NCBI GenBank assembly: GCA_038894195.1
Contig: JAWAPZ010000003.1
Span: 1 to 61,095, forward strand
Direction of reading: 5' to 3'
DNA length: 61,095 bases
Source: Candidatus Pacearchaeota archaeon
GTDB taxonomy: Archaea > Nanobdellota > Nanobdellia > Pacearchaeales > UBA284
The notes under the pieces are model-generated. The model saw nothing but the letters and a program-made list of their open reading frames with translations. It made no database searches and was not told where the DNA came from. Positions 3,257 through 45,922 of this stretch are shown in pieces; positions within the stretch are counted from its first letter, which is position 1; every line of letters starts with the position of its first letter. Made by a program: the position numbers and the translations under genes.

Positions 3257-3378
3257 CGCCGGGACTGGGACTCGAACCCAGATATCCTTACGGAAACAGG
3301 TTTTTCATTTTTCTTCCAGAGGCTTCCTTTTAAGAAGGCTCTTAGCAAACCTGCGCCTTACCATTGGGCCATCCCGGC
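3257..3378 (-). tRNA. tRNA-Ser(GCU) with 40-nt intron at 37/38 (3303-3342)
   Basis: GCCGGGA/UCCCGGC acceptor, CAGGU/ACCUG anticodon stem, UUGCUA|A loop, long variable arm, G73; relaxed BHB (3 of 4 central pairs). Confidence 0.92.
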
Positions 3379-4713: not shown

Positions 4714-4942
4714 TCTTCTTCCTTTCGATTAATTTCTTCGCTCTTCCAAGCATCTCTCGTTTTAAGCCAATAAAACAACCTCCTGGTTTGCCAGCACAAT
4801 ATGTCGCTTCGCCTTCTTTAATTATTTCTGCAATTTCTGGAGATTCAATATCAATATGTGTAATTCTCGCACGACTTTTACCTTGCTCGTGCAAATAAAC
4901 TTTTGCCTTAATAAGATACTTGCCTTCACCTGGACCACTCAT
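4694..4942 (-). CDS. Small hypothetical protein
   Basis: 82-aa ORF, TATA-like element about 25 nt upstream, overlaps the next gene. Confidence 0.65.
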   Translation of the reverse strand: MSGPGEGKYLIKAKVYLHEQGKSRARITHIDIESPEIAEIIKEGEATYCAGKPGGCFIGLKREMLGRAKKLIERKKNAVENE

Positions 4943-4979
4943 GAAAAACTTAATAAGCCCATGTATTTAAAATTTATTA

Positions 4980-5165
4980 GGGGCTGTAGTATAACTTGGT
5001 TAGTATACGTGCCTAGGGAAGCATTCTTTCTTTTGAAAAAGAAAGAACCTTGGGAAGAAAGAAAATCAAAGTTAGAAAAAACTCTAGAACGCACGCGATC
5101 TGGGTTCAAAGAGCTTTCCTAAAGAGAAGCCTCGGAAAGAAAGCATGAGAATCCCAGCAGCCCCA
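4980..5165 (+). tRNA. tRNA-Pro (anticodon reads AGG) with introns at 37/38 (5019-5089) and 59/60 (5111-5151)
   Basis: GGGGCUG/CAGCCCC-A73 acceptor, D loop CUUGGUUA, CGUGC/GCACG anticodon stem, CUGGG/CCCAG T stem; both introns form BHB motifs; mature length 74 nt. Confidence 0.9.
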
Positions 5166-44263: not shown

Positions 44264-45922
44264 ATGTTTGAAGAAAAAATAAAAGCAAGGATTTCAGAAG
44301 CGACTGGAATGAAAAAAGATGAGATTTTTCTTGAAAAACCTAAAGAAAATTATGGAGATTACGCATTTCCATGCTTCAGTTTAGCAAAAAAACTAAAAAA
44401 AAATCCAATTGAAGTTGCAAAAGATTTGGCAAACAAAATAAAACCATCAAAAGAGATAGAAAAAGTTGTGGCACTCCATGGTTACTTGAATTTTTTTATT
44501 GACAAAGAAATAATGATCAAAAAAATTCTAAAAAAAGTTCTGGGAGAAGAAAAAAGAAAAAAGAAAAAAGACATAATTCTTGTAGAATCTCCAGGGCCAA
44601 ACACAAACAAGCCGCTACATGTCGGTCATCTAAGAAATTTATTTATAGGCGACTCTATTGCCAGGATATTTGAATTTCTTGGATATAGAGTAAAAAGGGT
44701 TGATATAATAAATAACAGAGGAATTCACATCTGCAAGTCAATGCTAGCTTATCAGAAATGGGGTAAAAATAGAAAGCCAGATAAAAAACCAGACCATTTT
44801 GTTGGCCAGTTTTATGTTTTATTTTCACAAAAAGCAAAAGAAAATCCAGAACTTGAAAAAGAAGCCCAAGAACTACTTAGAAAATGGGAACAACAAGATA
44901 AAAAAACATTAAAATTATGGAAAAAAATGAATTCTTGGGCTATGCAAGGAATTCAAAAAACTTATAGACTTTTGAATTTTAGACATGACAAACAATATTT
45001 TGAATCAGAAACTTACAAAAAAGGTAAAGAGATTGTATTGCAAGGGTTGAAAAAAGGAATTTTTAAGAAAAGTGATGATGGTTCGGTTTTTGTTGATCTT
45101 AAAGAACTAGGAAAAAAAGTTTTATTGAGGGGTGACGAAACTAGTATTTATATTACCCAAGATATTGGCCTTGCAAAGAAACGATACGAAGATTATAAAT
45201 TTAGTAAAATGTTTTATGTTGTTGCTTCTGAACAAGATTATCATTTTAAGTGCTTATTTAAAATTTTAAATTTGTTAGGTTATAAGTGGGCTAGGAATCT
45301 TGTACATTTAAGCTACGGTATGGTTAATCTACCTTCTGGAAAAATGAAATCAAGAGAGGGCACGGTAATTGATGCTGATGATCTTATTTCCGAGGTTCTT
45401 GAAGGTGCTAAAAAGGAATTAATCAAAAGGTACAAACTAAGCAAGCAAAAATTAAAAACTAGAAGCTTAGCCATTGCTATTGCTGCAATTAAATTTGCTT
45501 TGCTTAAAGTAGATATTAAAAAAAATATTTTATTTGACAAGAAAGAAGCTCTTGACTTTGAAGGTTTTTCTGGACCTTACTTACAATATAGCTATGCTCG
45601 TGCCTCGAGCATTTTAAAAAAAATTAAAAACAAGAAGAGTAAAAAAAATTTTAAGAATCTTAACGAATCAGAAATTAATCTTGTTAAAAAATTAAGCGAG
45701 TTTCCAAGCACTATAGAAAGAACAGCCAGAGAACTAAAACCAGATATTTTAGCAATTTATTCCTACGAACTAGCACAGCTATTTAGCAACTTTTACCATA
45801 CTTGTCCTGTTTCGCAAGCTAAAGAAGAACGAGGAAGAAGAATCTTGATAGTTCTTGCTTTTAAGAAAATAATGAAAAACTGTCTAAATCTTCTTGGTAT
45901 TGAAGCGATTGAGGAGATGTAA
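44264..45922 (+). CDS. argS: Arginyl-tRNA synthetase
   Basis: PNTNKPLHVGHLRN, MKSREG, GPYLQYSYAR, FYHTCPV. Confidence 0.97.
   Translation: MFEEKIKARISEATGMKKDEIFLEKPKENYGDYAFPCFSLAKKLKKNPIEVAKDLANKIKPSKEIEKVVALHGYLNFFIDKEIMIKKILKKVLGEEKRKKKKDIILVESPGPNTNKPLHVGHLRNLFIGDSIARIFEFLGYRVKRVDIINNRGIHICKSMLAYQKWGKNRKPDKKPDHFVGQFYVLFSQKAKENPELEKEAQELLRKWEQQDKKTLKLWKKMNSWAMQGIQKTYRLLNFRHDKQYFESETYKKGKEIVLQGLKKGIFKKSDDGSVFVDLKELGKKVLLRGDETSIYITQDIGLAKKRYEDYKFSKMFYVVASEQDYHFKCLFKILNLLGYKWARNLVHLSYGMVNLPSGKMKSREGTVIDADDLISEVLEGAKKELIKRYKLSKQKLKTRSLAIAIAAIKFALLKVDIKKNILFDKKEALDFEGFSGPYLQYSYARASSILKKIKNKKSKKNFKNLNESEINLVKKLSEFPSTIERTARELKPDILAIYSYELAQLFSNFYHTCPVSQAKEERGRRILIVLAFKKIMKNCLNLLGIEAIEEM

Follow-up and report, generated by a model that had tools for sequence, protein, structure and literature searches.

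Can a stretch of DNA in which two standard tRNA finders report nothing carry a working tRNA gene? This question is raised by positions 4980-5165 of the forward strand of the window (the whole stretch of DNA that was analysed, 61,095 nt), which comes from contig C3 of a 535-kb, nine-contig, ~70% complete assembly of a Candidatus Pacearchaeota archaeon sampled in a hot-spring metagenome. A first-pass annotation had proposed that a tRNA-Pro gene with two introns is hidden there. Our results suggest that 4980-5165 (+) is a functional two-intron tRNA-Pro(AGG) gene whose introns are of the bulge-helix-bulge (BHB) type, a reading to which we assign a probability of about 0.92. Removal of 5019-5089 (71 nt) and 5111-5151 (41 nt) leaves a cloverleaf of 74 nt, as had been claimed, and ARAGORN identified the spliced 74 nt as tRNA-Pro(AGG) with acceptor, D, anticodon and T stems of 7, 4, 5 and 5 bp. 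The predicted spliced product has a 7-bp acceptor, a D-arm, a 5-bp anticodon stem with a 7-nt loop (CUAGGGC, with U33 and a purine at 37), a 4-nt variable loop, a 5-bp T-stem, a T-loop of the UUCRANY type (UUCAAAU) and a discriminator base, and all of its 21 stem pairs are standard pairs. CCA is not encoded at the 3' end of the gene. The parts of the locus, with one overlapping open reading frame (ORF), are as follows.

4944..4957, + strand: putative promoter, with an AAAAA run (4944-4948) resembling a transcription factor B recognition element (BRE), then TATA-like TTAATAAG (4950-4957).
4980..5018, + strand: exon 1, tRNA positions 1-37 (acceptor 5' strand, D-arm, anticodon stem 5' strand and loop CUAGGG).
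5019..5089, + strand: intron 1, 71 nt, at the canonical position 37/38 (BHB scan, folds, homologous introns in relatives).
5090..5110, + strand: exon 2, positions 38-59 (C38, anticodon stem 3' strand, 4-nt variable loop, T-stem 5' strand and UUCAAA).
5111..5151, + strand: intron 2, 41 nt, at the non-canonical T-loop position 59/60 (BHB scan, folds, intron-family profile).
5152..5165, + strand: exon 3, positions 60-73 (U60, T-stem 3' strand, acceptor 3' strand and discriminator A).
4856..5122, + strand: mechanical 88-codon ORF from the ORF list, overlapping the tRNA-Pro gene; not a gene.

The tRNA gene had been described as lying under a spurious ORF. The 88-codon ORF does overlap it mechanically, but it was not an annotated gene in the data checked: in the public contig carrying the region no gene is called over 4856-5122, and the products of the ORFs overlapping the tRNA-Pro gene are absent from a collection of 15 billion proteins.

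The suspicion that standard annotation could miss the gene was borne out. On the raw window ARAGORN in its default mode reported nothing at 4980-5165, nor did the Rfam tRNA model RF00005 on the raw window and the genome, and ARAGORN with its anticodon-intron search (-i) did not find the gene in the whole genome. ARAGORN -i found it when only the T-loop insert was removed and not when only the anticodon intron was removed, indicating that the T-loop intron is what hides the gene. Since the failure of RF00005 and ARAGORN on raw DNA is due to the two introns, it was not counted against membership in the tRNA family. Both tools are blind to nine tRNA genes of this genome, namely the three for proline and six others. 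In surveys of Pacearchaeota and of DPANN archaea like them, tRNA counts will therefore come out too low, which could falsely suggest missing decoding capacity or dependence on a host.

Both junctions fit a 3-4-3 BHB motif, with the bulges on opposite strands and the splice sites placed symmetrically within them. In a BHB scan demanding a central helix of 4/4 and an outer helix of at least 4/5 pairs, each showed 5/5 pairs in the outer (exon) helix and 4/4 in the central helix. For intron 1, the outer helix is the anticodon stem, CUAG at 5013-5016 (loop nt 32-35) pairs with CUAG at 5084-5087 to form the central helix, and the bulges lie at 5017-5019 (GG|A) and 5088-5090 (AA|C), exactly as first described. 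This intron also holds a 10-bp hairpin (5024-5047). For intron 2, the outer helix is the T-stem, UUCA at 5105-5108 (nt 54-57) pairs with UGAG at 5146-5149, and the bulges lie at 5109-5111 (AA|G) and 5150-5152 (AA|U). The central helix and bulges proposed for the T-loop intron thus stand, but GCUUUC (5113-5118) with GAAAGC (5139-5144), 6 bp, is its inner (intron) helix and not its outer one. The 37/38 and 59/60 sites are structural mimics of each other, because each intron follows nt 6 of a 7-nt loop that a 5-bp stem closes. Moreover, at both sites the first four loop nt pair with the four intron nt just upstream of the AA|N bulge.

The BHB forms are compatible with the folding energies, since folds constrained to them cost little, lying 2-3 kcal/mol per arm above the free minimum free energy (MFE). 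For the whole precursor, the fold with both BHBs has -49.9 kcal/mol versus an MFE of -56.8 kcal/mol (a gap of 6.9), and the precursor is more stable than its shuffles (z = -3.5). An exon segment that includes the anticodon, CCUAGGG at 5012-5018, can also pair with 5048-5054, lengthening the intron hairpin in rivalry with the anticodon stem and BHB; CCUCGG, the counterpart of CCUUGGG in intron 1, is kept across the intron family described below. An intron within the 37/38 intron was considered and rejected: only poor, AT-only BHB candidates were found within 5019-5089, and two orthologues (G023 and G019) align across the length of the intron. No C or D box motif of a C/D-box guide RNA was seen on inspection of the introns.

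Related genomes support the exon structure. The spliced sequence aligns with 12 orthologous tRNA-Pro(AGG) genes of related Candidatus Pacearchaeota, 8 of them intronless, and does so base for base with those that lack one or both introns; exon 1 is 85-100% identical to the 5' halves of the orthologues. By intron content the orthologues fall out as follows.

Intronless: G002, G010, G011, G006, G018, G017, G022 and G025.
Intron at 37/38 only: G023.
Intron at 59/60 only: G003 and G014.
Both introns: G019 and G021.

The intronless orthologues are continuous across both predicted junctions. As they read CUAGGGC straight through, an alternative anticodon UGG taken from the internal CCUUGGGAA, or a micro-exon, was ruled out. 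Correspondingly, in a 181-nt contig from the source metagenome (run X1) over window 4977-5018, a relative's CCUAGGG is joined directly to CGCACG with no 37/38 intron. The contig comes from a second, lower-depth Pacearchaeote, and the T-loop intron of its tRNA-Pro(AGG) is of the AUAAGG type, as in G014. Other contigs of the source metagenome confirmed the assembly at this locus.

When 15 mature proline tRNAs were aligned and their pairs counted under the cloverleaf (21 stem pairs), 99.0% of the cells were standard pairs and changes on both sides (compensatory changes) were found in 9/21 pairs. These values were reached by 0/500 shuffles, and in a slid control, with the 3' partners moved by 1-3 columns, pairing fell to 24-52%. 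The anticodon AGG, with A34, is kept in 13 Pacearchaeales genomes of two families, the present one included, and a GGG isoacceptor was not found among those 13. A TadA-like deaminase acting on A34 was sought and rejected as a candidate, the sole two genes of cytidine deaminase (CDA) fold in the genome being ComEB/dCMP-deaminase-like.

Upstream of the gene, TTAATAAG spans -30 to -23 from the mature 5' end, and AAAAAC-TTAATAAG occupies -36 to -23. When the upstream regions (60 nt each) of 39 of the genome's tRNA genes were aligned, a position-specific pattern emerged, with A at -35 to -33 followed by TTTWWAAA at -31 to -24; the tRNA-Pro(AGG) promoter is in register with it, as are the 38 other genes. 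The orthologues have TAATAAAT at the equivalent upstream place. Since it stands in the register of the genome's tRNA promoter motif, TTAATAAG is likely the TATA element of the gene, in agreement with the box that had been noticed about 23 nt upstream. The same 39 upstream regions also have a weaker T/C-rich patch around -14 to -12.

How proline is decoded in this genome bears directly on whether the gene is needed. Three tRNA-Pro genes were identified.

C3:4980-5165, + strand: Pro(AGG), introns at 37/38 (71 nt) and 59/60 (41 nt).
C1:210984-211146, - strand: Pro(UGG), introns at 37/38 (47 nt) and 59/60 (41 nt).
C1:56611-56738, + strand: Pro(CGG), intron at 59/60 only (55 nt).

No fourth tRNA-Pro gene or other decoder of CCU/CCC was found in the ~70% complete assembly, and these two codons make up 45% of the proline codons in long ORFs (CCU 38%, CCC 7%). 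A separate complete set of tRNA-Pro genes, which the first-pass annotation had named as evidence that would speak against the interrupted gene, is thus not seen here; the UGG and CGG genes are themselves interrupted at 59/60, and neither replaces AGG.

Indeed, 59/60 introns occur in at least nine tRNA genes of the genome, on which an anchor scan (perfect acceptor pairing, T-stem and UUC) and a dedicated T-loop scan agree: Pro-AGG, Pro-UGG, Pro-CGG, Asp-GUC, Lys-UUU, Ser-UGA, Gln-CUG, Val-GAC and a class II tRNA (C1:115395-115606). Eight of the nine T-loop introns have a perfect 4-bp UUCR/YGAR helix (Gln 3/4), for which we estimate a chance expectation of ~0.02 each. The 3' end is AA|U in 8/9 (AU|U in Asp) and the 5' bulge is AA|N in 8/9 (AU|A in Val). 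Because the intron-side helix of the T-loop introns is usually shifted by one nt, the 5' site appears slightly relaxed. Overall, ~28 of the ~39 tRNA genes bear introns (~0.87 introns per gene), with two introns each in Asp, Lys-UUU, Pro-UGG and Pro-AGG. With deletions ranked by BHB score, every resolved intron lies at 37/38 or 59/60, the resolved set leaving out five intron-containing tRNA genes and the class II tRNA. A strict BHB scan combined with ARAGORN recovered only 12 single-intron tRNAs genome-wide; it was too narrow because many introns have a central helix of 3/4, and it was replaced by the anchor scan on acceptor and T-arm. Brute-force single deletions gave too many spurious ARAGORN calls without BHB ranking. 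The tRNA-Pro(AGG) gene is part of a genome-wide pattern of interrupted tRNAs.

The two introns also belong to a repeated family. Intron 2 is identical at 33/41 positions to the 37/38 intron of a tRNA-Ser(GCU) gene 1.6 kb away, which is detected by Rfam and mislabelled as Phe(GAA) by ARAGORN -i:

3257-3378, - strand: tRNA-Ser(GCU), long variable arm, intron of ~40 nt at 37/38 (about 3303-3342).

Intron 2 further resembles the 37/38 intron of tRNA-Arg(UCG) on C1. Intron 1 shares the core of intron 2 and has two close counterparts in G023: a 59/60 intron of another tRNA (95% identity over 42 nt) and a 37/38 intron of a tRNA-Leu (91% identity over 53 nt). Its homologue in the Pro(AGG) orthologues of G023 and G019 is 77-80% identical. 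In relatives, further members interrupt Leu, Ile, Pro(CGG), Met, Cys and Gln genes and occupy the 37/38 as well as the 59/60 site, those in Pro(CGG), Met, Cys and Gln reaching other genera and another family of the order. An nhmmer profile of the family matched four introns in the genome, including both of tRNA-Pro(AGG), with intron 2 the best. The consensus is a hairpin plus tail (GAGCYUUCUU-loop-AAGAARCCUCGGRAAGAAA), and RNAalifold supported the hairpin as GAG(C)CUUCUU…AAGAAG(C)CUC followed by GGRAAGAAA, with compensatory changes in four pairs. Near-alike introns are therefore present in tRNAs of different identity and at different positions, which is the mark of transposed tRNA-intron families.

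Across the Pro(AGG) orthologues, a single site holds different introns. The 59/60 site carries three or four unrelated kinds: in the present genome the intron is of the hairpin family just described, those of G019 and G021 belong to a AGUCAGAACC… family akin to the introns of Pro-CGG, Lys-UUU and C1:115395-115606 in the present genome, that of G014 to an AUAAGG…UCAACC family akin to the present Asp and Ser-UGA introns, and that of G003 is only 16 nt long. Unrelated intron kinds at one T-loop site point to repeated, site-directed gain, and the pattern fits the proposal made for Thermoproteales that introns are gained repeatedly at a favoured site (Fujishima et al. 2010, reviewed in PMC4090602 and PMC4033280).

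Which enzymes could process these introns? The genome encodes RtcB (549 bits) and one EndA (C2, about 44416-44985; L013:1219-1788), a 189-aa protein with an N-domain and a catalytic domain. EndA scored 107 bits on TIGR00324 (cut-off 59.6) and keeps the catalytic Tyr, His and Lys; PF01974 and PF02778 gave one match each, both in this 189-aa ORF, and exactly one PF01974 match was found in each of 41 genomes of the order. The nearest solved structures are the Nanoarchaeum equitans catalytic subunit 3IEY_A (2e-34) and the Methanocaldococcus jannaschii homotetramer 1A79 (4e-30). EndA is collinear with 1A79, with the motifs YERG…EHA…STKK aligned, and its VDHEGD loop aligns with VDADGD of 1A79, an acidic loop type that we take to be the tetramer-assembly loop of 1A79 and to be missing from the N. 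equitans catalytic subunit. Against 3IEY_A there is a 6-residue gap at PKKGKRSE, which we infer to be the lysine-rich C-domain insertion of N. equitans; this insertion is common to N. equitans and ARMAN-1/-2 (PMC3239211) and was named L3 in PMC5829648. The EndAs of eight relatives have the same M. jannaschii Tyr-His spacing and are likewise without the N. equitans insertion. They bear a variable lysine-rich N-terminal tail of ~20-60 residues, also present in the EndA of this genome.

No beta subunit or three-unit EndA was found in the ~70% complete assembly, and the lysine-rich C-domain insertion is absent from EndA in the alignment, the N-domain loops CSL/ASL not having been specifically searched. 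EndA is thus classified as a single alpha-type, M. jannaschii-like unit, and is most likely of the homotetrameric alpha4 type. The first-pass annotation had held that multi-intron tRNAs need a broad-specificity endonuclease. That expectation found no support here: such an enzyme is not evident, because neither a beta subunit, a three-unit form nor the lysine-rich insertion was found, and the single 189-aa protein has no recognisable feature of that kind. The alpha4-type EndA either accepts the near-strict BHBs at 59/60 or is assisted, be it by its lysine-rich tail or by a factor that was not seen.

From these elements we infer a processing route. A precursor of ~190 nt would be transcribed from the archaeal BRE/TATA promoter at -36 to -23 and would contain the 71-nt BHB intron at 37/38 and the 41-nt BHB intron at 59/60. 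The single alpha-type EndA would cut within the four bulges, RtcB would join the three exons into the 74-nt tRNA, and CCA would be added later. Both introns are copies of one hairpin-plus-tail family that has spread among tRNA genes, and between 37/38 and 59/60, in this archaeal order.

A hidden tRNA-Pro(AGG) gene is supported by its orthologues, covariation, BHB geometry and promoter, by the presence of EndA and RtcB and by the lack of another CCU/CCC decoder in the assembly. Several observations weigh against it. In the BHB scan the inner helix of intron 1 is 2/4, that is, 2 bp beside the 5' bulge, and that of intron 2 starts only past an A.A mismatch. In the thermodynamic folds the 5' bulges of both introns sit in loops of 4-7 nt, which is not textbook, and the unconstrained MFE structure pairs exon CCUAGGG with intron CCUUGGG instead of forming the anticodon-arm BHB. 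An A34 is unusual for Archaea. The ~70% completeness leaves room for another tRNA-Pro gene in the missing part and for a second endonuclease subunit, although none of the 41 genomes of the order has a second PF01974 match, and the EndA that is present looks narrow in specificity, being alpha4-like and without the known specificity insertion. Finally, the only runs available for the source hot-spring study are three DNA runs, and splicing is predicted from DNA.

Some of these points would also suit a dead tRNA-Pro gene that lost its function when a small mobile element inserted into it twice: both inserts come from a repeated family that behaves as if mobile, there are slight departures from the strict BHB at the 5' splice sites, and the runs hold DNA only. 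We consider this very unlikely. Every stem is intact and shows covariation across the orthologues, the promoter is kept in register, and the assembly has no other decoder for the 45% of proline codons concerned. The orthologues of G019 and G021 have two introns yet intact exons. Moreover, the other two tRNA-Pro genes and six more tRNA genes share the T-loop interruption, so that inactivation by it would cost the cell several essential isoacceptors.

A real gene could alternatively retain the T-loop insert as an expansion, or need an extra factor to remove it, if the alpha4 EndA were unable to use the site. The collinearity of EndA with the narrow-specificity M. jannaschii enzyme, without the lysine-rich insertion of N. 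equitans and ARMAN-2, speaks for this, as does the statement that alpha4 enzymes need strict BHB motifs (PMC3239211, PMC5829648). However, the T-loop site matches the anticodon site in its 3-nt bulges, its 4-bp helix and its exon helix of 5 bp, and the 4-nt segment complementary to UUCR is kept in nine introns of three unrelated families, which is expected only if the BHB is used. An insertion of 41-116 nt in the T-loop would also wreck the T-loop/D-loop contact that a tRNA needs for its L-shape, as textbook tRNA structure teaches. In addition, DPANN lineages with alpha4-type enzymes and many disrupted tRNAs have been reported (PMC5829648). Retention of the insert, or its removal only with an extra factor, is accordingly highly improbable in our judgement.

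That the cloverleaf is a chance product of picking two deletions in AT-rich intergenic DNA, for which the ~350,000 loose BHB-like candidates genome-wide and the many spurious ARAGORN calls of brute-force deletion might be cited, is refuted by the orthologue alignment, in which the exons are 85-100% identical to tRNA-Pro(AGG) genes from a dozen further genomes, some of which have no intron, with compensatory substitutions, and we regard its probability as practically negligible.

How does the predicted two-intron tRNA-Pro(AGG) gene compare with known systems? In ARMAN-2 (Candidatus Micrarchaeum acidiphilum), pre-tRNA-Cys(GCA) has a 59/60 intron and pre-tRNA-Pro(GGG) has introns at 53/54 and 59/60, and in ARMAN-4 and -5 a tRNA-Pro(AGG) with A34 stands in place of GGG (Fujishima et al. 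2011, PMC3239211). ARMAN lineages thus already provide documented cases of introns at 59/60, of a pre-tRNA-Pro with two introns and of an A34 tRNA-Pro(AGG) replacing GGG. The present genome resembles ARMAN-2 in being that of a DPANN archaeon with a BHB intron after the sixth T-loop nt and a multi-intron, hard-to-predict proline tRNA gene, and it resembles ARMAN-4 and -5 in its A34-bearing tRNA-Pro(AGG). In contrast to ARMAN-2, its second intron lies at 37/38 rather than 53/54, and its introns are 41 and 71 nt long and belong to a repeated family, whereas the Cys intron of ARMAN-2 has 13 nt. The enzymes differ too: the EndA of ARMAN-2 is a three-unit epsilon2 form with specificity loops, and here we found one alpha unit without the lysine-rich insertion.

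Thermoproteales have tRNAs with multiple introns and transposed intron families (Sugahara et al. 2008; Fujishima et al. 2010, as related in PMC4033280 and PMC4090602). The likeness extends to intron density (~0.87 per gene here versus 0.84 there, the figure given in PMC8450103) and, as far as these accounts go, to near-identical introns in different tRNA species at canonical as well as non-canonical positions. By the same accounts, those archaea have introns at many sites, whereas the resolved introns of this DPANN/Pacearchaeota genome lie at two sites only, and they use an (alpha-beta)2 EndA with a Crenarchaea-specific loop, whereas a beta subunit was not detected here or in 40 relatives.

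According to Kaneta et al. 2018 (PMC5829648), alpha4-type EndAs in DPANN, including a Pacearchaeota genome, go with more tRNA disruption, and an incomplete predicted set of tRNAs implies disrupted genes that have yet to be identified and must be curated by hand. The tRNA-Pro(AGG) gene here is such a gene. However, that study tied the trait to the L3 loop of Nanoarchaea and ARMAN-2, and the EndA here and those of eight relatives are without the N. equitans insertion. With regard to the canonical archaeal 37/38 BHB, which EndA cuts and RtcB ligates, intron 1 is alike in having the anticodon stem outside, a central helix of nt 32-35 and predicted cuts in two 3-nt bulges, and unlike in its length (71 nt), its 2-bp inner helix and its internal CCUUGGG competing for the anticodon loop. 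We found no earlier description of a gene with introns of one family in both of its loops, of introns restricted to two mimic sites, or of the missing L3-type insertion.

One gene with the same intron family in two structurally equivalent loops, next to a narrow-looking sole endonuclease, bears on the model that ties endonuclease architecture to intron position. It is conceivable, though the odds are somewhat against it, that an M. jannaschii-like, single-subunit EndA without the known N. equitans/ARMAN-2 specificity insertion, perhaps helped by its lineage-specific lysine-rich N-terminal tail, routinely processes ~34 introns, nine of them at 59/60 with slightly relaxed 5' bulges, and that the introns are copies of a small loop-invading hairpin element. 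Any loop of 7 nt on a 5-bp stem would be open to it, and it would have invaded tRNA-Pro(AGG) twice. If so, endonuclease architecture would not limit tRNA gene disruption as the coevolution model holds, and Pacearchaeota would have an active, loop-targeting mini-intron.

A few further features of the genome and its relatives were noted. The EndA gene adjoins a gene of the metallo-beta-lactamase fold (L013:255-1145), presumably RNase Z. A dCMP-deaminase-like ORF (C4:15119-15529, - strand) has an in-frame TAG directly past the conserved His-Ala and before Glu (VHA*EN), which could reflect a pseudogene, a sequencing error or read-through. In another family of the order, a Pro-like tRNA (G026:C42:650-1000) has its anticodon loop broken earlier (…CCGAGCCU|AAAAACC…) and bears a T-loop insert in addition. 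Two more entries concern T-loop-interrupted genes.

C1:174968-175165, + strand: tRNA-Ser(UGA), with a 116-nt 59/60 intron made of three tandem ~35-nt units (AAUAAGGAACACAUUUCCUUAUCAACCUUUGGAAG).
C1:115395-115606, - strand: class II tRNA, acceptor and T arms both perfect, 59/60 intron of 49 nt.

The class II tRNA has ~85 extra nt in its body, which gave no unique set of introns, and it probably carries three introns.

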